NCBI GenBank assembly: GCA_030950645.1
Contig: JAUZRF010000052.1
Coordinates: 6,427-70,426 of the forward strand
Source: Mariprofundales bacterium
GTDB taxonomy: Bacteria; Pseudomonadota; Zetaproteobacteria; Mariprofundales; J009
Direction of reading: 5' to 3'
Length of the DNA: 64,000 bases
Of this stretch, positions 7,922-48,740 are shown one piece after another. Both the position numbers and the translations under genes were made by a program. The notes beneath the pieces were generated by a model. It was not told the origin of the DNA. It worked only from the letters and a program-made list of their open reading frames with translations, and did no database searches. The number at the start of each line of letters is the position of its first letter. Within the stretch, counting starts at the first letter, position 1.

Positions 7922-7972
7922 GTAATTACTCAGCACCCTGCCCAAAAATGGCTATAACTGCTGAGTAGTTAC
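7922..7972 (-). repeat. MITE-family remnant (copy A): long-form tail plus fused termini, with the palindromic core deleted
   Basis: GTAATTACTCAG-caccctgcccaaaaatggct-ATAACTGCTGAGTAGTTAC. The reverse complement matches the outer 12 bp plus the last about 39 bp of the 153-bp copy at 9056-9208, and about 98 internal bp are missing. Confidence 0.75.
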
Positions 7973-7973
7973 G

Positions 7974-9059
7974 ATGACGCTCCATATCCTTGAACCCACC
8001 CTGATCAACGATTCCGGCCACTGCTATACCGTGGCGCGGGCGTTGATTGATGTTGCCGTGGTTAGCGAGCCGGTCACGCCGATCCATCTATGGGCAGGCA
8101 GGCAGGCGGAGGCGCGGTTGATTGATCTACCAACGGTGCAACTCACGCCCTGCTTTTCGCGGAAATTGCGGCGCATTCAGCTTCATTTTCTGCTCAGACG
8201 GCTGTTGCGTGCTGGGGAGAGTGTGTTTGTGCTTACCGCTTCGCGGGCGGAGCTATTCTCCTATGCCATGATTCCAAAAGCTCTTCGTCAGCGTGGCAAT
8301 GCCGTCTTTTATGTTCATCAGATGCGGATGGATGCCAAGCGCCTTCGGCGTTTGCAGTGGATTGCCCGCCGAGCGCCGGAGATGCGTATTTTGACGACCA
8401 CCGAGGCGTTGGCGCAGTCGATTTCCCAAGCGGGGTTTGCGCAGGTGCGTTGTCAGCCTTATCCCCTTGCGCTGCCCGAGGCGCTGCCTGCGACACCGCC
8501 GTTTCGCCATCTGCTGTTTCCTGGGATGGCACGGATGGATAAAAACCTAGCTTTGGTGGCGGAGGTCATTGGGCGGATGCATCAGCGTGGGTGTACTATT
8601 CCGGTGCATCTGCAGGCGGCACCCAACCATCACGGTGAATTTGCGCCGGATGTGGCGGCATTGCTGCAAAAGATTCGTCATATCGGTTATCCCCATTTGA
8701 CGATGCCGGAGCAGGCGGTGGATGGTGCAGCGTACCTGGATCAGTTTCGTGGCGCGATCTGTTTGCAGCCCTTCCATCGTGACCAATATGCAGATAAAGT
8801 GAGTGGAATTACCCTTGATGCCTTAGGGCAAGCGTGTCCGGTGGTGGTGCGCTCCAGGATTTGGGCGGCTACCATGGTCACCCGTTATGATGCAGGAGCG
8901 GTGGTGGATGGTGACGATGCCAACATCTGGCTCGATGCCATTATCGCGGTGATCGCCGATTACCCCCGTTATCAGGCGAACTGTTGTCAGGCGTATGCAG
9001 AGCTTCGTCAACAGCACGATCCGGCACGCCTATTCGCCGCAATTATGGATACGGTGTAA
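7974..9059 (+). CDS. Uncharacterised protein, possibly a GT-B-fold glycosyltransferase
   Basis: 361-aa ORF in the LPS-type cluster. I recognise no strong family motif. The C-terminal segment (VSGITLDALGQACPVVV) weakly resembles the nucleotide-sugar binding region of GT-B enzymes. The stop codon TAA (9057-9059) lies inside the MITE terminus. Confidence 0.6.
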   Translation: MTLHILEPTLINDSGHCYTVARALIDVAVVSEPVTPIHLWAGRQAEARLIDLPTVQLTPCFSRKLRRIQLHFLLRRLLRAGESVFVLTASRAELFSYAMIPKALRQRGNAVFYVHQMRMDAKRLRRLQWIARRAPEMRILTTTEALAQSISQAGFAQVRCQPYPLALPEALPATPPFRHLLFPGMARMDKNLALVAEVIGRMHQRGCTIPVHLQAAPNHHGEFAPDVAALLQKIRHIGYPHLTMPEQAVDGAAYLDQFRGAICLQPFHRDQYADKVSGITLDALGQACPVVVRSRIWAATMVTRYDAGAVVDGDDANIWLDAIIAVIADYPRYQANCCQAYAELRQQHDPARLFAAIMDTV

Positions 9060-9208
9060 CTACTCAGCTCACTTCCGGTTTTCCCGATAGCGGCGTTGAA
9101 AAATGCTCATTTACAGTAGTAAACTCCGCTTTTTCGCCTTGCTATCAGGAAAACCGGAAGCAATCTGAGCAGTTACAGCCATTTTTGGGTAGGGTGCTGA
9201 GTAGTTAC
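9056..9208 (+). mobile_element. MITE-like palindromic element, long form (copy B, 153 bp) with 8-bp TSD GATACGGT
   Basis: The termini are GTAACTACTCAG and CTGAGTAGTTAC. Imperfect inverted arms of about 36 bp enclose a core that pairs almost to its centre. There is an extra 3' module (agccatttttgggtagggtg plus a third 12-mer). Identical GATACGGT is found at 9048-9055 and 9209-9216. Confidence 0.9.
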
Positions 9209-9228
9209 GATACGGTTAAGGAGCAGCG

Positions 9229-10014
9229 ATGAGTCGTCCACCAATTTCGGCCTATATCATGACATTCAATGAGGCGGAGAAGATTGTTGATGCCATCGCC
9301 AGTGTGCGCTGGGCGGATGAGGTGGTGGTGATCGACTCCTTTAGCACCGATGGCACCGATCGCATCGCAGAGGAGATGGGGGCGCGGGTGGAGTCGGTGC
9401 CGTTTCATACCTTTGGCCAGATTCGCAACACGGCGATGGATGCCTGCCGTCATGATTGGATCTTCAGCCTTGATGCCGATGAGCGTTGCACCCGGTCGGC
9501 AGCCGAGGAGATTCAACGCACGGTGGATCTGCCGGATGCTGTTGATGCCTACTTTATACCTCGCCGCAACTGGTATTTGGGGCGTTGGGTGATGCATTCG
9601 GGCTGGTACCCGGACTACCGTCAGCCGCAACTGTTTCGCCGTGGTGCGCTTGCATTCGACTCTCAGGCGGAGGTGCATGAGGAGTACACCATTCAGGGCA
9701 CGGTGGGGTATCTAACGCAGGATATTATTCAGTTTCCCTACATGAACATCGAGCAGATGGTGCACAAGATGCAGCGTTACTCGACGCTGGGGGCGGAGAA
9801 GTGTGACCGTCAGGGTAAGCAGGGCGGTATTGGTAAAGGGTTGCTGCATGGGCTATGGAGTTTTTTCCGCCATTATGTGATCAAACTGGGGTTTCTTGAT
9901 GGCCGTGCCGGGTTGATGATTGCCGTGGGCAACTTTGAGGGCACCTTCTACCGCTATGCCAAATTGGCTGCCAGACAACAAAACTGGCTGAAAAAACCCC
10001 CATCGCACCCATAA
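9229..10014 (+). CDS. Glycosyltransferase family 2
   Basis: N-terminal GT2 signature ISAYIMTFNEAEKIVDAIASVRWADEVVVIDSFSTDGT and a DAD motif (SLDADE). AAGGAG lies 7 nt upstream of the ATG. Confidence 0.85.
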   Translation: MSRPPISAYIMTFNEAEKIVDAIASVRWADEVVVIDSFSTDGTDRIAEEMGARVESVPFHTFGQIRNTAMDACRHDWIFSLDADERCTRSAAEEIQRTVDLPDAVDAYFIPRRNWYLGRWVMHSGWYPDYRQPQLFRRGALAFDSQAEVHEEYTIQGTVGYLTQDIIQFPYMNIEQMVHKMQRYSTLGAEKCDRQGKQGGIGKGLLHGLWSFFRHYVIKLGFLDGRAGLMIAVGNFEGTFYRYAKLAARQQNWLKKPPSHP

Positions 10015-10920: not shown

Positions 10921-13572
10921 TCAGGTGGCGTCAATGATCTCGCGCACCATGTGGCTTAGTCCTGGTATTGAATAGGGCTTCGATAGTACGGTGTACTCCT
11001 CTGAGGGCATCTCCTCGCCCAGCGCATGATCCCGATCATAGCCACTGACAAACAGCACCTTGGCGTTGGGGTCAATGCGCTGAATGCGCTCGGTGGCCTG
11101 TACTCCGCCCAGCCGTGGCATCACAATATCCATCATGATCATGGCGATTTCATGTTGGTGATCGGTAAATATCTTCACCGCCTCTAAGCCATCACTGGCT
11201 TCCAGCACGCGGTAATTCAAGCTCTCTAGCACATTCTTGCCGACCTCACGCACATTGGCGTTGTCGTCGACCAATAGAATCAGCTCACCATCGCCACATA
11301 CGGTATTATCACCATTGGTTACAGCGGCCTTGACCGTCTGCTTCTCTTCGATCAATGGTAGATAGATGTGAAATGCGGTGCCTTTACTGGGGGCACTCTT
11401 CACCGTCAGTATGCCACCATGGCTCTGCACCGCGCCATAAGCCATTGATAGCCCGAGACCGGTTCCCAACCCCACCTCTTTGGTGGTGTAGAACGGCTCA
11501 AAGATATGCTTCTGATCCTCATCACTGATGCCGCAGCCGTTATCGGCCACCATGATACATGCGAAATGGCGTCCCTTGAGATTAGGATGCGATGCGCAAA
11601 ACGCAGCATCAGACTCATATTTGGTTAATCGCACCGACACCTCGGGTGCTACCACATCGGTTAGTGCATCACGGGCGTTATTCATCAGATTCATCAACAG
11701 CTGCTGAATTTGGGTGGCATCGCCACGCACCGTAAGTTCATCGCTGCAGATATCCTTCTTGAGGGAGATCCTCTCTGGCATGGTCGTTGAACAGAGCTTG
11801 CAGACCTCACGCATGAACGACGCTAGGCCAAACGGTCGCATCTCCACGGTGCTTTTGCGTGCAAATGCCATCAGGTGCTTGATCATATCGCTAGCTTTTA
11901 GGCTCAGTTGCTCTATCCGTTCCAGTTTTTCGACCACCTTCGGCAGTGCTGAAGCTTGGCGTTTGGCCAGGTAGATGTTGCCAGTAATTCCAGACAGCAT
12001 ATTATTGAAGTCATGGGCGATGCCGCCAACCAATGTACCTAGCGCCTCCATCTTTTGCGCTTGACGGAACCGCTCTTCCAGCTCCTCATGCGCCGTCATA
12101 TCCTGTTGGATAGCGACATAATGGGTGATATGATGGTTGTCATCCATAATCGGAGCAATCGAGTTGATTGCTGGGTATTGGGTGCCATCCTTCCTCTTGT
12201 CCACTATCGTACTATGCCACGGCTCGCCGTTGATAATGGTTTTCCACATCTGTTCATAGAACTCTGGTGGCTGATTGCCACTTTTAAGGATTCTTGGGTT
12301 CTTACCCAGCGCCTCTTCCGCACTGTAACCGGTAATGGTGGTGAAGGCGGGATTGACATACTCAATCGTTCCCGACTTGTCGGTGATCATGATCGACTCC
12401 CCCGCTTGATCAACTGCTTGGGAGAGTATGCGTACCTTCTCTTGTTTTTGGTGATCCTTGGTTATATTGAACATAAATCCGGATATCCCTATCGGATCAC
12501 CCCTGCCCATAGTGACAGATACCCGCTCTTGAACCCAAACCGTTTCGCCATTCACTACCATGCGATACTCAAATACATGGGGTTGACCAAGTGCGGTTTG
12601 GTCTTGGCAATAGCGAACGGCATGTTCCCGATCCTCGGGGTGTATCAGAGCCTCCCAATCCTCCATGGTACGCAACGCACTTTTGGAGAATCCCAGCACC
12701 TTCATTACCTGATCCCCGACATAAGTAAAGCGATTGCCCACTAGGTCAAATGACCAGGGAACAGCCTCAACCGATTGGGTAAGCAGTTGAAACTTTTCCT
12801 GTGATTGCTTTCTGGCCGTAATGTCAGAGGCGGTTGAAGCCCAGCGTGAAACCGCTCCTGTCGCATAGCGTATAGGAAAGCAGCGCAGCATGACCCAGCC
12901 GATACCACCGTCGGACCGAACGGTGCGGAATTCAGCCTCCATGCTCTCGCTATCACCACGGTAGTAGGCTTGTGTCAGCTGCGCTAACTGCGGCCGATCC
13001 TCTGGATGGACGCAATCCATCCATGCCAGTGGATTGTTGCGTAGGTCATCATCACATTGACCAAACAGTGGCTGGTAGCGGTCGTTGGTAAACAGCAACA
13101 CATCGTTGTCCGCGTTCATCAGCCAGAAGGCATCGGGGGAGGCATTGAATATCTGACGCAACCGGCGCTCACTGGCGCGTAGATCGTGGGCGGCTTGCCA
13201 CTGCGCAATCAGGTTGCGCACCCGATTGCGCAGCACTGCCCAGTGAATCGGCTTGTTGATGTAATCGCTAGCACCTGCCTGGTAGCATTGATCTACCATC
13301 GCGTCGCCCTCTTGCGCCGTCATCATGATCACCGGCACGGAGTTGCCGTTGTCACGCAATCTGCGACATACCTCCAGTCCGTCCATGTTGGGCATGGAGA
13401 GATCCATCAACACACAACTCGGTTGGCACTGTTTCACCAGCGCCAACCCAGACTCCCCATTGTCAGCCTGTGCTACCTGGTAGCCATTTTTGTCAAAGAA
13501 CTGCTCTAGCATTAGGCGGATTACGGGATCATCATCGACCACAAGTACTGTGATTTTTTCATCTGCATTCAT
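10921..13572 (-). CDS. Hybrid sensor histidine kinase / response regulator (REC-PAS-PAS-PAS-HisKA-HATPase-REC)
   Basis: N-terminal receiver (VLVVDDDPVIRLML...MDLSMPNMDG), PAS-like repeats, H-box GGIAHDFNNMLSGI, G-boxes (DNGCGI, GLGTGLGLSMAYG) and a C-terminal receiver (LLVDDNANVREV...MDIVMPRLGG). I prefer the ATG at 13572, which forms an ATGA overlap with the upstream kinase stop. The track start at 13593 is also possible. Confidence 0.85.
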   Translation of the reverse strand: MNADEKITVLVVDDDPVIRLMLEQFFDKNGYQVAQADNGESGLALVKQCQPSCVLMDLSMPNMDGLEVCRRLRDNGNSVPVIMMTAQEGDAMVDQCYQAGASDYINKPIHWAVLRNRVRNLIAQWQAAHDLRASERRLRQIFNASPDAFWLMNADNDVLLFTNDRYQPLFGQCDDDLRNNPLAWMDCVHPEDRPQLAQLTQAYYRGDSESMEAEFRTVRSDGGIGWVMLRCFPIRYATGAVSRWASTASDITARKQSQEKFQLLTQSVEAVPWSFDLVGNRFTYVGDQVMKVLGFSKSALRTMEDWEALIHPEDREHAVRYCQDQTALGQPHVFEYRMVVNGETVWVQERVSVTMGRGDPIGISGFMFNITKDHQKQEKVRILSQAVDQAGESIMITDKSGTIEYVNPAFTTITGYSAEEALGKNPRILKSGNQPPEFYEQMWKTIINGEPWHSTIVDKRKDGTQYPAINSIAPIMDDNHHITHYVAIQQDMTAHEELEERFRQAQKMEALGTLVGGIAHDFNNMLSGITGNIYLAKRQASALPKVVEKLERIEQLSLKASDMIKHLMAFARKSTVEMRPFGLASFMREVCKLCSTTMPERISLKKDICSDELTVRGDATQIQQLLMNLMNNARDALTDVVAPEVSVRLTKYESDAAFCASHPNLKGRHFACIMVADNGCGISDEDQKHIFEPFYTTKEVGLGTGLGLSMAYGAVQSHGGILTVKSAPSKGTAFHIYLPLIEEKQTVKAAVTNGDNTVCGDGELILLVDDNANVREVGKNVLESLNYRVLEASDGLEAVKIFTDHQHEIAMIMMDIVMPRLGGVQATERIQRIDPNAKVLFVSGYDRDHALGEEMPSEEYTVLSKPYSIPGLSHMVREIIDAT

Positions 13573-16918: not shown

Positions 16919-16977
16919 GTAATTACGCAGCTCACGCCTTGCCATCAGCAAAACCGGAAGCGATCTGAGTAGTATAC
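16919..16977 (+). repeat. MITE-family remnant (copy G) with internal deletion
   Basis: gtaattacgcagctcac is joined directly to gccttgccatcagcaaaaccggaagcgatctgagtagtatac (left terminus plus right arm). The flanks gatgttcg and gatgtaac share GATGT. Confidence 0.7.
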
Positions 16978-17067: not shown

Positions 17068-17256
17068 TCAGCGGTTGCAGGTGTTGGCGTGGCCGTGATA
17101 CTCTACGGGGAGGATCACGCCATTCAGTAAGATCAGTAGATCCACCTCCATGCCATCCTTGGTGCGCCAATAGTAGCGATCGACCCTGTTGCCAATATGG
17201 GTGAAGGCTTTTAGTGCTTGATATAAAGGGTGTTGGAGTGATCGTGGCAAGTACAT
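17068..17256 (-). pseudogene. C-terminal fragment of a DUF4143-type AAA ATPase gene
   Basis: The 62-aa ORF contains RYYWRTKDGMEVDLLI...LPVEY, which resembles the C-terminal DUF4143 region (YWRT..G.EVDF...IP.E) of ATPases of about 400 aa. The N-terminal about 85 percent is absent, and the ORF is flanked by degenerate repeats. Confidence 0.5.
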
Positions 17257-17261
17257 GCTGT

Positions 17262-17286
17262 AAAACTAAAATTGAATTTTAGTTTT
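17262..17286. repeat. Perfect AT-rich palindrome AAAACTAAAAT-tga-ATTTTAGTTTT
   Basis: Read directly from the sequence. It has 11-bp perfect inverted arms with a 3-nt spacer, directly upstream of the gene fragment on the minus strand. Confidence 0.8.
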
Positions 17287-17307
17287 GTCAATCCGGCTGC
17301 GAATGGC

Positions 17308-17390
17308 ACCACTTTTTCGCCTTGTTATCAGGATAATCATAATAACTCTAAGTAGTTGCACTCATTTTTTGGTAAAATGCTGAGTAATTA
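17308..17390 (+). repeat. MITE-family remnant (copy H): degenerate right half plus long-form tail
   Basis: actttttcgccttgttatcagg...taactctaagtagttgcactcattttttggtaaaatgctgagtaatta aligns with the right arm and tail of copy B. The element end overlaps the first ATG of the mfd ORF. Confidence 0.65.
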
Positions 17391-20300
17391 TGCTGCAAAT
17401 GCGGCTTGAATCTGTCTTTCCAGTGCCGATACCGCCTAAAACAGGCATGGTGCCGAGCTCGCTGCTAGGCTGTGCCGCCTCCATGAATAGTCATTCTTTA
17501 TCCGCCTTGGGCTGGCGCCTGTCTGAACTGGCACGGTGCAGGCCGAAGCGATTGCTGGTCTATATTACGCCGGATCTGCGCAGCTATCGTACCTTGGCTG
17601 AGGAGCTCTCATTTTTCCTGCCGCAAGCCGATCATCTATGGCGTTTCCCCGCCTGGGAGGTGCTGCCCTATGATCGCGTCAGCCCGCACCATGCTATTGT
17701 CGGGGAACGATTCGCTACCTTAAGTCGCCTGTTGCGTCAGCCCAATCCGAGCGGGGTGCTGATTACCGCCCTGCCAGCATGGCTACAACGCATCGCACCG
17801 CCATCATCGGTGACCGCCCATGTATGGCAGCTCAAGGTGGGCGATCAACTTGATCTTGGGGCACTCCAGCACCAATTGATCGAGGCGGGGATGCAACCGG
17901 TGGAGCGGGTGATGGATAGTGGCGAATTTGCCGTGCGTGGTGGCCTGTTCGATATCTGGCCCGCCACCTCCAATGCTCCGATCCGTATCGACCTATTTGG
18001 TGACGATATTGACTCGATCCACACCTTTGACATCGATAGCCAGCGCTCTGGTGCTGCTATTACCGCCTTTGTCTCGGTGCCGGTGCGCGAGGTGATTCTT
18101 GATCAACCTGGTCGGGAGACCTTTTGCGCCGCCTTTCGTGCCCGCTTCCCCCATCTGCGCGGCCACCCCATGCTCACCGCCGCAAAGGTGGGACGGCCGC
18201 ACCCTGGTATTGAGGCGCTGCTGCCGCTGGCCTATCACCAGACTGCACGCTTGCAAGATTACCTGCCATCCGATGCGGTAATCGTCAGTAGCAGCGATCT
18301 TCTGCCTCAGCGCGACCAGTTCGGTGCGCAACTGCGCTCCCATTTTGATCTGATGCGCCACACCGAGGATCCCGCGATCAGCCCGCAGGAGCTGTTTGCG
18401 GTCGAGAGCGATATTCGCGCGACGCTGATTACTCAGCAGGAGGCGCAACTGCATTTGCCGCCGGTTGGTGCCGCTCCGGCGTTATCCGATTTCAGCCAGC
18501 GCCAGGCTCCACTCCATGCCTTGCGTGATCGGTTGCGCCAACAGCTGAGTGATGGCTGGCGGCTGCTGCTGATTGCCCATGGCCCGGGTCAGGCCGAACG
18601 GATGCGGGAGGTTTGTGCGCCGCTGGAGTGTGCCTTTGCCGACTGTGCTGGGCTGCACGATCTGCCGGATGCACGCTCGGCTAGCGGCCCGACTATTTTC
18701 CAAACCTTGGGCTTTGTCGAACAGGGCTTCGTGCTGGAACACGACAAGCTGTTGGTGCTGACCGGACGCGAGCTGTTGGGGCAACGCATCAGTGGCAGCA
18801 GGCACCGCTCGATCTCGGCCATTCGCGCCAATGTGTTTCAGCAGTTACAGGAGCTGGTGCCCGGCAACATGGTGATCCATGAGGATCATGGTTTAGGGCG
18901 CTATTGTGGGCTTGAAACCATGGAGGTGGAGCCGGGGCAGCAGGCTGATTTCCTCCATATTGAATACGCTGGTGACGCCTCGATCTTTGTGCCGGTGGAG
19001 GAGCTTGCCCGTCTTCACCCCTATGTTGGCGACTCCAATCCGGCACTAAACAAGCTCGGTAGCGACAAATGGAAGAAGACGCGCCAGCGGGTAGAGACCG
19101 ACCTGCTGGTGATTGCCCATGAGCTGGTAGCGGTGGAGGCGCGGCGACGGCAGGTGCGTCACGAGGTGGTTGATCTTGCGGCGATTCGTGATGCGTACGA
19201 TGAGTTTTGCGCCCGTTTTCCATTTGAAGAGACCGAGGATCAGCAGCAGGCGATTGATCAGGTGTTGGCCGACATGCAGCAGCCACTGCCGATGGATCGG
19301 GTGGTGTGCGGTGATGTCGGTTTTGGCAAAACTGAGGTGGCGATGCGTGCCGCCTTTGTGGCCGCCGCAGATGGCCGCCAAGTGGCGATGCTGGCACCGA
19401 CCACGGTGCTGGCCAACCAGCACTACACCAGCTTGCGCGAACGCTTCGCTGGCACCGGCCTTGAGATTGCGCTGTTATCCCGCCTCCAGGGCAAAGCCGA
19501 GAGTGCGCGCATCATCACTGGGCTGCAATTGGGTACGGTGCAGATCATCGTCGGCACCCATCGGCTGCTCTCTGCTGCGATCAAGTTCTCCAATCTTGGG
19601 CTGGTGATTGTCGATGAGGAGCACCGCTTCGGCGTGAAGCATAAAGAGGCGATGAAAAAGCTCCATGCCTCGGTTGATTTGATGACCATGACCGCCACTC
19701 CGATCCCGCGTACCCTGCACCAGACCCTCTCTGGCCTGCGCAGTGTCTCCATTATCTCCACCCCGCCGAGCGAACGGGAGGCGATTCGTACCATCGTCTG
19801 TCAATTCGATCTTCACCTTGCTGCCGAGGCGATCCGGCGTGAGCTCTACCGTGGCGGGCAGGTCTATTATCTGCATAACCATGTCAAAAGTATTGACCGC
19901 GTGGCGCAAAGGCTGCGCGAACAGGTGCCGGAGGCGGAGATTGGCATTGCCCACGGTCAGATGGGGGCGGCGGTGCTCGATCGCGCCATGATGGCGTTTC
20001 ATGAGGGGCGGCTGCACATCTTGGTCTGCACCACCATTGTGGAATCGGGGCTCGATGTGCCCAACGCCAACACCATGATTGTTGAACGGGCTGATCTGCT
20101 AGGCTTAGCCCAGCTTCACCAGATTCGTGGTCGGGTGGGGCGTAGCCATCGCCAGGCATTTGCGTACCTCTTCACCCCCGATCCGCGTGCGATCACGCCC
20201 GATGCCCGGGAGCGGCTACACGCGATCGCTCAGCACAGTGAGTTGGGTGCGGGCTTCATGCTGGCGCGGCAGGACATGGAGATTCGTGGCGCCGGTAACC

Positions 20301-25205: not shown

Positions 25206-25281
25206 TGGCTCCCCGGGCCGGACTCGAACCAGCGACAAGGTGATTAACAGTCACCCGCTCTACCAACTGAGCTACCGGGGA
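25206..25281 (-). tRNA. tRNA-Asn (anticodon GTT), CCA encoded
   Basis: The reverse complement TCCCCGGTAGCTCAGTTGGTAGAGCGGGTGACTGTTAATCACCTTGTCGCTGGTTCGAGTCCGGCCCGGGGAGCCA folds by hand into a cloverleaf. It has a 7-bp acceptor, GCTC/GAGC D stem, GGTGA/TCACC anticodon stem with loop CTGTTAA, and a GCTGG/CCGGC T stem with TTCGAGT loop. Confidence 0.92.
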
Positions 25282-25358: not shown

Positions 25359-25480
25359 GTAACTGCTCAGATTGCTTCTGCTTTTTCTGATAGCAAGGCG
25401 AAAAAGCGGAGTTTACTACTGTAAATGGGTATTTTTCAACGCCGCTATCGTGGAAAGCCGGAAGTGATCTGAGTAGTTAC
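25359..25480 (-). mobile_element. MITE-like palindromic element, short form (copy C, 122 bp) with 8-bp TSD ACCAAAAT
   Basis: GTAACTGCTCAG...CTGAGTAGTTAC. The core is the reverse complement of the copy B core. Identical ACCAAAAT is found at 25351-25358 and 25481-25488. Confidence 0.9.
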
Positions 25481-33241: not shown

Positions 33242-33329
33242 GTAAACTCCGCTTTTTCGCCTTGCTATCAGTAAAAACCGGAAGCAATCTGAGCAGTTAC
33301 GGGATGTTTTCAATGGGTGCTGAGTAGTT
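33242..33329 (+). repeat. MITE-family half copy (copy D): right half of the palindrome plus a diverged long-form tail
   Basis: gtaaactccgctttttcgccttgctatcagtaaaaaccggaagcaatctgagcagttac + gggatgttttcaatgggtg + ctgagtagtt. It begins at the palindrome centre and ends at the start codon of the next gene. Confidence 0.8.
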
Positions 33330-33330
33330 G

Positions 33331-33987
33331 ATGCCATCACTACGCGTTCGTTATCAAACCTTGGAGTTTGGTCTGACGGATATTCATCTGCGAACGCTGA
33401 GAAACAACCAGGAGTTCTCGGATGATGAGGGTGTGGCCGAAAAGTTAGGGATCTCATCGGCGACATGGCCGCTGTTTGGCATCGTCTGGCCTTCGGGGCA
33501 GGTGCTCGCCCATCTCATGTTTGATTATGAGATTGCAGGCAAGCGTATTTTGGAGGTGGGTTGTGGCATTGCACTGTCGAGTCTAGTGCTGAACCACCGT
33601 CAAGCAGATATTACGGCGACAGATTACCACCCCGAGGCGGCAAATTTTCTTCGGGAGAATACCGCGCTCAATCACGATGCCGCCATCCCTTTTTTCCGCA
33701 CGGGCTGGGGCGATCCCGATGTTGGCCTCGGTAAATTTGATCTTATTATTGGTAGTGATCTGCTTTATGAGCGCGGACATGCGGAATTGCTATCGACTTT
33801 TATTGATAACCATACCAAGCCGCATTGCGAAGTGATTCTGATTGATCCAGGACGCGGCCACCATGCCCGCTTTAGCAAACGGATGGTGAGCCTGGGGTAT
33901 TTGCATCGCCAAACTCGGCCTGAAAACACCGACTATCTGGATAAGCCTCTGCCAAAAGGACAAGTGCTGCACTATCAGCGTTCGTAG
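33331..33987 (+). CDS. Class I SAM-dependent methyltransferase, Methyltransf_16 (putative protein-lysine methyltransferase)-like
   Basis: GIVWPSGQVLAHLM...AGKRILEVGCGIALSSLVL...ITATDYHPEA...GWGDP...FDLIIGSDLLYE matches the METTL21/FAM86-type pattern. I take ATG 33331 as the start. The track TTG at 33328 lies in the repeat terminus. Confidence 0.72.
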   Translation: MPSLRVRYQTLEFGLTDIHLRTLRNNQEFSDDEGVAEKLGISSATWPLFGIVWPSGQVLAHLMFDYEIAGKRILEVGCGIALSSLVLNHRQADITATDYHPEAANFLRENTALNHDAAIPFFRTGWGDPDVGLGKFDLIIGSDLLYERGHAELLSTFIDNHTKPHCEVILIDPGRGHHARFSKRMVSLGYLHRQTRPENTDYLDKPLPKGQVLHYQRS

Positions 33988-34012: not shown

Positions 34013-34165
34013 ATAACTACTCAGCTCACTCCTGACTTTCCTGATAGCGGCGTTGAAAAATGCGCATTTACAGTAGTAAACTCTGCTTTTTCGCCTTGCT
34101 ATCAGGAAAACCGTAAGTAATCTGAGTAGTTACAACCATTTTTGGGTAGGGTGCTGAGTCGTTAC
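34013..34165 (+). mobile_element. MITE-like palindromic element, long form (copy E), no intact TSD
   Basis: ATAACTACTCAG...CTGAGTAGTTAC-aaccatttttgggtagggtg-CTGAGTCGTTAC. It is collinear with copy B over its full length, with about a dozen substitutions by eye. The flanks acagccgg and tttttagg differ. Confidence 0.85.
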
Positions 34166-34316: not shown

Positions 34317-34712
34317 ATGAAGCTTACCCAACAACGCACAGCGATCCTGCAACTGGTTACCAACTCCGATCACCACTGGGATGCCGAAGCCATTGTGGTC
34401 GCACTCAACAATCAGGGGCGAAAAATTGGTAACGCCACCGTCTATCGCGGCTTGCAAGCCCTCGAGCAGGCCGGAATGCTCACCTCACTACCAATCAATG
34501 GCCGCAAACATTACGAACTCGGCGGCAAACAGCATCACGACCACTTAATCTGCACTGCCTGCGGACAAATCAAAGAGTTCTGCCACCCAGAAATCGAACG
34601 ATTACAACTGGAGATGGCCGCGCAAAACGCGTTTGTGGTACATGACCACCAATTGGTGCTCTACGGTACCTGCCAAGCATGCACTGCCAAATCCAACCGA
34701 GCCCAAGCATGA
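34317..34712 (+). CDS. Fur-family metalloregulator
   Basis: 131 aa. It has a winged-helix N-terminal region (TQQRTAILQLV...ATVYRGLQALEQAGML) and a metal-site region HHDHLICTACGQIKEF...CQAC with two CxxC pairs. Confidence 0.85.
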   Translation: MKLTQQRTAILQLVTNSDHHWDAEAIVVALNNQGRKIGNATVYRGLQALEQAGMLTSLPINGRKHYELGGKQHHDHLICTACGQIKEFCHPEIERLQLEMAAQNAFVVHDHQLVLYGTCQACTAKSNRAQA

Positions 34713-47345: not shown

Positions 47346-47363
47346 ACAATCTTGGCCTTCAAC

Positions 47364-47400
47364 CAAAAAGGCCTCCCGATTTGCACCGAGAGGCCTTTTG
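47364..47400 (-). terminator. Rho-independent terminator after rpsI
   Basis: The minus strand reads AAAAGGCCTC-tcggtgcaaatcgg-GAGGCCTTTTTGG. It has a GC-rich stem of about 10 bp followed by a T-run, about 20 nt after the rpsI stop. Confidence 0.7.
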
Positions 47401-47420
47401 AAATAAGGAAAAGCTGAGAA

Positions 47421-47816
47421 TCAGCGCTTAGAGAACTGTGGAGCCTTACGCGCCTTCTTCAGACCATACTTCTTGCGTTCCACGACACGGGAGTCACGGG
47501 TAAGAAAGCCACGCTTCTTCAATGCTGGGCGTAGACCTGAATCGTAACTCAGCAACGCGCGAGAAATACCTAAGCGAATCGCACCCGCTTGACCGCTTAC
47601 GCCACCACCGTGCACATTCACCTTGATATCAACGCTACCCGAAACCTGCGCTTCACCCAACGGCTTAAGCGCCTCTTGACGGACGATTTCAATCGGAAAA
47701 TAATCCTCAATCGTGCGGCCATTCACCGTTACCACGCCATTCCCAGGAAGCAGTATCACGCGTGCGGTGCTGGCTTTGCGGCGTCCAGTGCCACGATGCA
47801 TGTTGTCGTCAGACAT
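47421..47816 (-). CDS. rpsI: 30S ribosomal protein S9
   Basis: 131 aa, ending in the invariant ...[24 protein letters not shown] is near the N-terminus. Confidence 0.96.
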
Positions 47817-47856
47817 ATTTTTTCTCTCGCCTCTTCTTAATTTTTTATAAATACAT

Positions 47857-47979
47857 GTAACTGCTCAGATTGCTTCTGATTTTTTCTCGATAGCAAGGGG
47901 AAAAAGCGGAGTTTACTACTGTAAATGTGCATTTTTCAATATAGCTATCGGAAAAACCGAGAGTGAGCTGAGTAGTTAC
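47857..47979 (-). mobile_element. MITE-like palindromic element, short form (copy F) inside the rplM-rpsI intergenic spacer
   Basis: GTAACTGCTCAG...CTGAGTAGTTAC is collinear with copy C. The flanks aaatacat and agatgatt are not identical. The element ends 6 nt from the rplM stop codon. Confidence 0.85.
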
Positions 47980-47985
47980 AGATGA

Positions 47986-48414
47986 TTATAGCTTCAGTGC
48001 TACCGGCTTCTGCGCGGCATGAGGATGATCCTCACCCACATAAACCTTGAGTTTTTTCAACATATCACGACCCAACGGGTTTTTGGGCATCATCCCCTTC
48101 ACCGCTCCAGCGATAATTCGCTCGGGGTGGCGTTCACGCTGATCGGCCAAAGAGATGGTTTTCAAGCCACCTGGGTGACCGGTATGATGATGATAGAGTT
48201 TATCGGTTTCCTTGCGGCCGGTGACCCGAATCTTTTCTGCATTGATCACCACGACATTGTCGCCACAATCTATATGTGGGGTATACGCTGGGCGGTGTTT
48301 GCCTTTTAAAATCGATGCGATCTTCGAGGCCAAACGACCCAACACCATATCACGGGCATCAACCACAAACCACTCTTTTTCCGCATCACCCGGACGGGGC
48401 ATCCATGTGCTCAT
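47986..48414 (-). CDS. rplM: 50S ribosomal protein L13
   Basis: 142 aa. [29 protein letters not shown] and [12 protein letters not shown] are typical of L13. Confidence 0.96.
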
Positions 48415-48740
48415 AATTTTAAATTGTCACCTCATATTAGAAAATCATATTAGCTCCAGCCTATATGTAAGTAACGCAGCAGAGCCAATACCTGAGACCA
48501 AACAGATCATCCATCAAGTCTCAAACGGGCGGCGCATGTTAGGGTAGCATATCTACCTGTCAACGCTCAAGTGGCAACAGTCCTGAAAATATGGTCGCAC
48601 CTTTTTTCAACTATTGACAACACCCCATCAAGACGAAAAAGTCTCGCCCCAACTTGGAGTGCCCTCATCAAGGTTTACACATAGATGTGCACCCAGTTTC
48701 TACATCAAATAATATAGAGCGGAGGGGCGGTTCTGACACT

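Follow-up and report, generated by a model that had tools for sequence, protein, structure and literature searches.

The genes for the ribosomal proteins uL13 (rplM, promoter-proximal) and uS9 (rpsI, distal) lie next to each other on the reverse strand of the window analysed here, a 64,000-nt stretch of contig JAUZRF010000052.1 from a metagenome-assembled genome (MAG) of a Mariprofundales bacterium. The spacer between them is 169 nt long, and 123 bp of it are one copy, hereafter copy F, of a MITE (a miniature transposable element with inverted repeats) that is dispersed through the window (Table 1). Both lengths had been given in a first-pass annotation of this DNA; the listing of open reading frames (ORFs) returned the same spacer, and copy F was recovered within the same limits by blastn, by a covariance model and by its termini. 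The window L13 protein is 100% identical to the NCBI 50S ribosomal protein L13 of a Mariprofundales bacterium and belongs to Pfam family PF00572, and the nearest L13 and S9 genes are all from Mariprofundaceae. The NCBI protein has one residue more (MMSTW...) than the product of the ORF read from its ATG, and the extra codon in the window (within 48412-48417) is ATT; the annotated start is therefore non-canonical and was picked to fit the length of homologues.

Elsewhere the two genes are close neighbours, as the first-pass annotation had assumed. The spacer does not exceed 80 nt in 78 of the 79 genomes surveyed, measures 13-29 nt in 17 Zetaproteobacteria and stays between 13 and 34 nt in relatives. 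The single outlier (L063) has a 278-nt spacer with unremarkable folding (z = +0.5), which probably reflects a problem of the survey script in calling the start codon.

Two relatives with the gene order of the window (nuoCBA divergent from rplM-rpsI) carry empty sites, namely L201 (86% L13 identity, spacer of 29 nt) and L202 (77% L13 identity, spacer of 34 nt). The L201 junction reads ...GCTATAA-TT-TTATAAGAAGAAGAGGCGAGAGAGACT-ATG, and that of the window ...GCTATAA-TCATCT-element-ATGTATTTATAAAAAATTAAGAAGAGGCGAGAGAAAAAAT-ATG, so that the L201 stretch TAA-TT-TTATAAGAAGAAGAGGCGAGAG can be aligned to both sides of copy F. According to this alignment, the target was an 8-bp site that includes the final two bases of the rplM stop codon. 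Copy F now starts 6 nt after that stop codon, whereas the ancestral rpsI leader and Shine-Dalgarno region are unchanged relative to L201 and lie 40 nt downstream of it; the start codon and the first codons of rpsI are likewise conserved between the window and L201.

The 8-mers flanking copy F (AAATACAT and AGATGATT) are identical at only 4 of 8 positions, and at 16 positions the copy departs from the consensus drawn from the other copies; it also carries a 2-nt insertion. The decay of the duplication and the 16 consensus differences fit an old insertion. The annotation had noted that no intact target duplication remains and had taken the insertion to be an older one; both statements hold, the latter also in view of its absence from the 86%-identical relative. 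Judged by its sequence, copy F is a genuine, lineage-specific MITE insertion. A repeat copy misplaced into the spacer during assembly could mimic such an insertion, the source being a MAG in which at least two other contigs break inside repeat copies. Both flanks are nevertheless collinear with the empty sites of relatives, and the 16 private differences and the 2-nt insertion mean that copy F is not a collapsed consensus copy and that reads across it would be unique; we regard an artefact of this kind as extremely improbable.

Table 1. Features of the rplM-rpsI locus and copies of the MITE family in the window.
Feature	Positions	Strand	Evidence and remarks
rplM (ribosomal protein uL13), promoter-proximal gene	47986-48414	-	ORF listing; stop codon TAA 47986-47988
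rpsI (ribosomal protein uS9), distal gene	47421-47816	-	ORF listing; tblastn to S9 genes directly downstream of rplM, 79 genomes
rplM-rpsI intercistronic spacer, 169 nt	47817-47985	-	sequence and ORF listing
MITE copy F, 123 bp	47857-47979	-	blastn; covariance model, 122 bits on - strand, 58.6 bits on + strand
Terminal inverted repeat GTAACTGCTCAG	47857-47868	+	pattern search
Terminal inverted repeat CTGAGTAGTTAC	47968-47979	+	in mRNA begins 6 nt past the rplM stop codon
Decayed target-site duplication, rpsI side, AAATACAT	47849-47856	.	sequence
Decayed target-site duplication, rplM side, AGATGATT	47980-47987	.	sequence; overlaps two bases of the rplM stop codon
Apex (core) of the palindrome, AAGGGGAAAAAGCGGAGTTTACTACTGTAAATGTGCATTTTTCAA	47895-47939	+	best conserved internal part (copy alignment, plasmid blastn, model)
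rpsI Shine-Dalgarno region AGAGGCGAGAG (-18 to -8), ancestral, retained	47824-47834	-	same GAAGAGGCGAGAG in the L201 empty site
Promoter-like motif TTGAAA-N18-TAAACT toward rpsI, 9/12	47910-47939	-	consensus scan
Best promoter-like site upstream of rplM, TTGACA-N16-TAACAT, 10/12; candidate operon promoter	48536-48563	-	consensus scan
Canonical intrinsic terminator after rpsI: GC-rich stem GGCCUCUCGG/UCGGGAGGCC, then UUUUU	47363-47401	-	fold of 47351-47425, -34 kcal/mol
Composite copy, 153 bp (122-bp body, 20-bp module, third terminal repeat)	9056-9208	+	perfect 8-bp duplication GATACGGT
Copy of 122 bp, between a tRNA gene (25209-25281, -) and a leuA-like gene	25359-25480	+	perfect 8-bp duplication ACCAAAAT; 87% identity to copy F
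Composite copy, between a methyltransferase gene and fur	34013-34165	+	body 34013-34133, 83% identity to copy F
Half copy and module, between sucA and the methyltransferase gene	33242-33331	+	blastn
Internal-deletion derivative, 51 bp, termini and 20-bp module	7922-7972	+	pattern search
Internal-deletion derivative upstream of mfd	16919-16977	+	blastn
Degenerate half copy and module, directly upstream of mfd	17310-17391	+	blastn

The MITE family and its insertion sites

At least eight copies or fragments of the element (4 full and 4 partial) were found in the 64 kb of the window by blastn and by the covariance model, which was built from the copies themselves. The 12-nt termini GTAACTGCTCAG/CTGAGTAGTTAC have 14 matches in the window with one mismatch allowed, versus 0.29 expected, and each full copy begins and ends with GTAACTRCTCAG. 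Perfect 8-bp repeats border two of the copies (9048-9055/9209-9216 and 25351-25358/25481-25488). A match at all eight positions is expected by chance once in 65,536 cases, so GATACGGT and ACCAAAAT are target-site duplications and the family has transposed as a DNA element.

The family exists in two forms, the 122-bp body and a 153-bp composite of the body, a 20-bp module and a third terminal repeat; the body of the composite copy at 9056 (9056-9176) is 88.6% identical to copy F. The longer form transposes as a unit, because the target duplication flanks the whole of it. The module, AGCCATTTTTGGGTAGGGTG, together with the third terminal repeat occupies one end of most copies (9177-9208, 34134-34165, 33301-33331, 17352-17391, and 7934-7953), and the 51-bp element at 7922-7972 corresponds to the 153-bp form without its body. 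Two further composite copies at contig ends of the same MAG (locus tags Q9M26_*) were translated through by gene callers; two partial "hypothetical proteins" in its NCBI annotation (P0121 and P0122) are translations of these copies. Contig ends in repeat copies are the usual sign of a high-copy repeat breaking the assembly.

The element is 122-153 bp long with 39-45% G+C, and contains only short incidental ORFs and no transposase gene. In the copy at 9056-9176 (+, frame 1) the transcript-sense frame is open through the entire element for 40 codons. A small peptide encoded by the element was considered and rejected: short ORFs occur in both senses, but their length and Shine-Dalgarno sequences are not conserved among relatives. 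By its sequence characteristics (short length, terminal inverted repeats, 8-bp duplications, dispersed copies, and filled and empty sites) the family is a true MITE. A literature search found no paper that deals with zetaproteobacterial repeats or with the element's core sequence; the family, with its GTAAC...GTTAC termini, is previously undescribed and abundant in this Mariprofundales genome.

Diverged copies were detected with the covariance model in two other zetaproteobacterial MAGs (L010, 108 bits; L011, 66 bits). A transposase with matching ends was found neither in the window nor in about 380 kb of related loci or a plasmid collection, and a search of the plasmid collection with the 42-nt end as query, aimed at a parent insertion sequence, gave only chance matches (E >= 2). 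Among 120 loci obtained in a metagenome scan with the loose pattern GTAACTRCTCAGNNNNNYTTCYG, a related terminus was found in L150 only, and the L120 match is a chance one inside a coding region. The L150 element (L150:3945-4115, metagenome contig WNFX01005332.1) is a GC-rich palindrome of about 170 bp, whose termini GGTAACTGCTCAGATGTCCTTCTGA are 92% identical over 24 nt to the MITE end and whose interior is wholly unlike that of the Mariprofundales MITE. It may have been mobilised by a related transposase.

Several copies occupy junctions between co-directional genes, namely those at 9056, 33242 (sucA/methyltransferase), and 34013 (methyltransferase/fur); others lie upstream of mfd or beside a tRNA gene. 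The copy at 9056 cut the last four codons off the ORF at 7974-9059, and the TAA within the GTAAC terminus became its new stop codon. Read from the duplicated target, this ORF ended before the insertion in ...GTTAAGGAGCAGCGATGA, with its TGA overlapping the ATG of the next gene (ATGA), which encodes a family-2 glycosyltransferase. Within 9048-9240 the insertion thus disrupted a translational-coupling overlap between genes of a polysaccharide-type cluster. The upstream ORF at the L010 copy (12727-13011) likewise ends in the terminal TAA of the element. In L011 a diverged copy (17406-17527, - strand) lies in the 215-nt spacer between the genes of 23S rRNA (17548-17871) and 5S rRNA (17218-17332), with the orientation to transcription that the rplM-rpsI copy also has; the apex of the L011 copy differs (GCATAC...GTATGC), with pairing kept. 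Since the family sits in other operon junctions and in a 23S-5S spacer, toleration in highly expressed operons of the translation apparatus characterises the family as such and is not peculiar to the rplM-rpsI locus. The insertion had been called unusual for an essential, highly expressed operon, and this is true of rplM-rpsI operons in general but not of the MITE family, for which such toleration is typical.

The element was compared with known families. ERIC, a MITE of about 127 bp from Enterobacteriaceae and Vibrionaceae, resembles it in size and in forming an imperfect palindrome over its whole length. ERIC copies, too, are intergenic and usually co-transcribed, often lying just past a stop codon or between cistrons, and they have orientation-dependent consequences, the two strands folding differently. 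By eye, the apices of both elements have the layout GAG-YTTAC-N4-GTAAR-TGA in common. ERIC differs, however, in being flanked by TA (PMC3184786) instead of an 8-bp duplication and in its termini (TATACTC... versus GTAACTGCTCAG). Membership was rejected, as the alignment of the element to real E. coli ERIC scored within shuffles (209-254 of 1000) and the covariance model gave no match at E <= 1; a blastn search of 5,426 E. coli genomes with the element gave no match either.

The Correia elements of Neisseria (CREE/NEMIS) are likewise abundant MITEs of about 100-160 bp with short and long forms, which are located in transcribed regions, form hairpins in mRNA and carry promoter-like motifs. With them, RNase III cutting of a hairpin in a co-transcribed MITE has its precedent (PMC10969869). 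They differ in their TA target, in their 26-bp termini of unrelated sequence and in their restriction to Neisseria, whereas the paired termini of the Mariprofundales MITE span 11-12 bp and its helix is interrupted. Membership in this family was also rejected, in view of the 8-bp duplication instead of TA and the 12-nt termini of other sequence (for Correia traits, see PMC10969869 and PMC3184786); the analogy with Correia is one of possible mode of action, not of identity. ERIC and Correia are the functionally closest known systems.

Insertion sequences of the IS66 family have termini beginning with GTAA and an 8-bp target duplication (PMC11946415), both of which are found in the MITE, although only GTAA is common to the ends (GTAAGCG... 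in IS66 versus GTAACTG... in the element). No IS66-type transposase with matching ends was found in the window, the related loci or the plasmid collection, and the IS66 family as the source of the transposase is a lead only. The REP/BIME sequences of E. coli operons (e.g., malE-malF) are, like the element, co-transcribed intercistronic palindromes that can alter the relative expression of flanking cistrons. REPs are 20-40 bp long and GC-rich and bear a GTAG/CGTC head; RAYT transposases mobilise them, and the target is not duplicated (PMC3733652). Membership of the 122-153-bp, AT-rich element was rejected on its 122-bp length, its G+C content of 39-45% and its 8-bp duplications; it also has terminal inverted repeats.

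Hairpin and expression signals of the spacer

In the mRNA sense, copy F is predicted to form a hairpin of 42 pairs (-35.3 kcal/mol) arranged in runs of 6, 5, 3, 7, 1, 7, 6, 2, and 5, the longest uninterrupted run being 7. The stem of roughly 55 bp claimed in the first-pass annotation is thus replaced by a shorter and interrupted one. The whole spacer folds at -37.7 kcal/mol (z = -3.1 versus shuffles). A scheme of 45 pairs is common to all copies and includes six compensated pairs, mostly in the diverged L010 copy. A search of the whole window against Rfam returned nothing at the gathering threshold except one tRNA; the matches in the spacer were at chance level (MIR530, 22.6 bits with 85 needed; RyhB, 14 bits with 55 needed).

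The two strands of the element are not equivalent. The strand opposite to the mRNA folds better by 9-20 kcal/mol in all five copies compared (9056, 25359, 34013, 47857, and L010:13008-13131), because its G-U pairs become C-A mismatches in the mRNA. We designate the less stable hairpin strand R-sense; the rplM-rpsI mRNA (- strand) carries this weaker R-sense of copy F. The same holds for the transcripts at all six copies that follow a co-directional gene (9056, 33242, 34013, 47857, L010, and L011; two-sided p ~0.03, a small sample), a bias that fits selective filtering. The stability of the copy F hairpin lies within a simulation of 16 random changes to the consensus (-32.4 +/- 6.7 kcal/mol, with 31% of the outcomes at least as stable as -35.3). 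Selection for or against this hairpin was accordingly discarded, its state being indistinguishable from random decay.

These structural data bear on an alternative, put forward in the first-pass annotation, in which the hairpin would act as a processing signal or stability determinant. An RNase III cut, or an RNase E site exposed in the manner of ERIC in Yersinia, would split the mRNA into rplM and rpsI halves of different stability and shift the L13:S9 ratio. The folding of the spacer beyond shuffles, the 45-pair scheme with its six compensated pairs, and the location of a sister copy in a 23S-5S rRNA spacer, whose transcript is heavily processed anyway, are all in its favour, and known precedents include RNase III cleavage of Correia elements at the paired termini and an orientation-dependent effect of ERIC on mRNA decay via RNase E (PMC10969869, PMC3184786). 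Cleavage of the transcribed hairpin by RNase III is plausible as a model. The mRNA nevertheless carries the weaker strand, with 42 pairs, no run longer than 7 bp and several internal loops, the structure of copy F has decayed as expected for drift, and L13 and S9 are needed at 1:1, which would make any differential effect a cost. We consider processing with such an effect unlikely.

The promoter-like motif pointing toward rpsI, mentioned in the first-pass annotation, was found by the scan (47939->47910) but is weak. It matches the consensus at 9 of 12 positions with an 18-nt spacer, and 1.4 kb of shuffled sequence yields 2.0 +/- 1.5 sites that are as good. If functional, it would drive an additional rpsI-only transcript that lacks the 5' hairpin arm, has a free leader and could offset polarity. 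TTGAAA-N18-TAAACT is invariant in the four full copies of the window, each of which is followed by a gene in the sense of the motif (rpsI, the glycosyltransferase gene at 9229, fur at 34317, and the tRNA gene at 25281), and functional promoters are known in Correia elements (PMC3184786). Yet neither the -35 part nor the spacing is retained in L010, in L011 or in the distant core relatives, and the motif lies within the apex of the palindrome, so that its conservation may have another cause; a promoter role of the element seems quite unlikely.

The position of a long hairpin directly before AUGUAUUUAU, which places 5 U within 8 nt immediately after it, would also permit a partial terminator or attenuator that reduces read-through into rpsI. 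The terminator scan of the element was negative, its basal stem (GUAACU/AGUUAC) is AU-rich, and the U-rich stretch past the stem is ancestral, being present in the L201 empty site. The real terminator after rpsI looks different, with a GC-rich stem followed by U5, and the gene downstream of the element is essential and has no strong promoter of its own. Attenuation by copy F is, in our assessment, very unlikely.

The Shine-Dalgarno region of rpsI is predicted to be mostly unpaired, at a mean probability of 0.62 with copy F and 0.65-0.68 with other copies modelled at the same position. Through a private change (CTTCCGG -> CTCTCGG), the mRNA 5' arm of copy F has become complementary to the Shine-Dalgarno sequence of rpsI (CUCUCG/CGAGAG, 47951-47963 versus 47824-47836). 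Sequestration of the latter by the 5' arm was examined as a separate possibility and is not supported, with about 1.3 expected pairs in the ensemble and the small difference in unpaired probability given above.

Interpretation of copy F and the conserved apex

The best conserved internal part of the element is the apex of the palindrome, about 40 nt long, which in the rplM-rpsI mRNA sense reads A5-TGCTCATTTAC-N4-GTAAACTCCGC-T5 and in the opposite sense GGCGAAAAAGCGGAGTTTAC-N4-GTAAATGAGCATTTTTCAACGCC. With the apex as a query, blastn of the plasmid collection returned matches in Halomonas (E = 6e-5), Haliscomenobacter (2e-3), Pseudomonas veronii (9e-3), Ca. Fukatsuia (3e-2), and also Pseudoalteromonas, as well as in a record labelled as an S. 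aureus plasmid (5e-6), in which the match lies within a 16S-23S spacer; a shuffled query gave nothing better than E = 5. A Pseudoalteromonas chromid repeat and the sequences of Halomonas, P. veronii, Ca. Fukatsuia, and Haliscomenobacter have in common with the MITE an apex of about 40-55 nt, G(C)GAAAAAGCGSAGTTTAC-N4/5-GTAAATGAGCATTTT, with scores of 20-38 bits against the model. Matches to GCGAAAAAGCGGAGTTTAC-N4/5-GTAAATGAGCATTTT are located at L205:1501-1540, L207:2501-2541, L208:2501-2540, L209:2473-2588, L206:5899-5936, and L204:1461-1574, all of them unannotated and several clearly palindromic.

At least in Halomonas, P. veronii, and Pseudoalteromonas the shared sequence is the apex of a longer palindrome. 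The distant repeats differ from the MITE in their outer arms and in their termini, which are unrelated to GTAACTGCTCAG; the apex, including its unpaired bases, is conserved across phyla while the termini differ. The palindromic repeats with this apex, otherwise unrelated, belong to Zetaproteobacteria, several Gammaproteobacteria and a Bacteroidota plasmid. The Pseudoalteromonas repeat (about 167 bp, 3-19 copies per chromid, 38 bits to the full-length model) additionally shares inner arms (GATAGC...) with the MITE. Scans of viral contigs with core patterns gave one true core match, L206 (an IMG/VR contig), and one chance match in a phage gene, and a search of a phage collection for the core gave chance-level matches only. 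No name or description of the distant apex-bearing repeats was found in the literature.

We lean, if only slightly, towards the view that copy F is a tolerated, co-transcribed passenger of the MITE family with a net effect close to neutral. Provided that the operon is a single unit, the element must be part of the rplM-rpsI transcript. It would be transcribed within this mRNA from a promoter upstream of rplM and would fold into the weaker, interrupted 42-bp hairpin once the ribosome has terminated at rplM. Transcription would not be terminated by the element, and ribosomes would initiate independently on rpsI, whose ribosome-binding site is preserved and predicted to be mostly unpaired. The copy would have survived since its position and orientation do least harm, and it would have drifted afterwards.

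Possible side effects of such a passenger are a looser translational coupling of rplM to rpsI, hindered termination 6 nt before the hairpin, and entry sites for nucleases. Termination of an upstream cistron can reportedly be hindered when a hairpin lies no more than about 15 nt from the stop codon, and REP elements are reported to have reduced upstream expression (Liang, Rudd and Deutscher, 2015). By analogy, a ribosome stopping 6 nt before the copy F hairpin must presumably melt the hairpin base. In E. coli, both rplM and rpsI are under translational repression by uL13, exerted from the 5' untranslated region (PMC10931766), and any coupling of the uL13 type should, if the analogy holds, be loosened by a structured spacer of 169 nt.

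Several points weigh against a neutral passenger. Co-transcription, folding in vivo and neutrality are all inferred, and the source is a MAG, so that copy F need not be fixed in the population. The core, unchanged among the window copies and common to repeats across phyla, is more conserved than a pure passenger requires; this hints at a function tied to its sequence. A useful promoter or RNA signal in that sense could equally lie behind the bias in orientation (six copies out of six). Finally, the minimum-energy fold in a 230-nt context does pair the 5' arm with the rpsI Shine-Dalgarno sequence, although this conformation accounts for about 10% of the ensemble.

If copy F is indeed a near-neutral passenger, it represents a natural example of tolerance to a mobile hairpin in an essential, stoichiometrically constrained ribosomal-protein operon, where the insertion persists solely because its position and its orientation are those by which the rpsI ribosome-binding site is spared. 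The insertion would also be a natural experiment on translational coupling and on autogenous control by L13, which concerns both cistrons in E. coli (PMC10931766). The MITE adds an undescribed abundant family to the Zetaproteobacteria, a group for which nearly all knowledge comes from metagenomes.

Among the leads, the cross-phylum apex alone could exceed a catalogue entry. It may be a functional module (a site bound by a protein, a promoter, or a signal for processing or of the boxA kind) that is carried by different mobile elements, in which case the orientation of the six copies would suggest that those in the rplM-rpsI and 23S-5S spacers were co-opted for the control of expression; we treat this as a long shot. 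In the transcript sense the apex (47921-47933, - strand) reads TGCTCATTTACAG, or TGCACATTTACAG in copy F. The former matches, at 10 of 13 positions, the E. coli rrn boxA, TGCTCTTTAACAA; this likeness is probably due to chance, the chance probability being about 0.03 per element prior to any correction for the many motifs considered.

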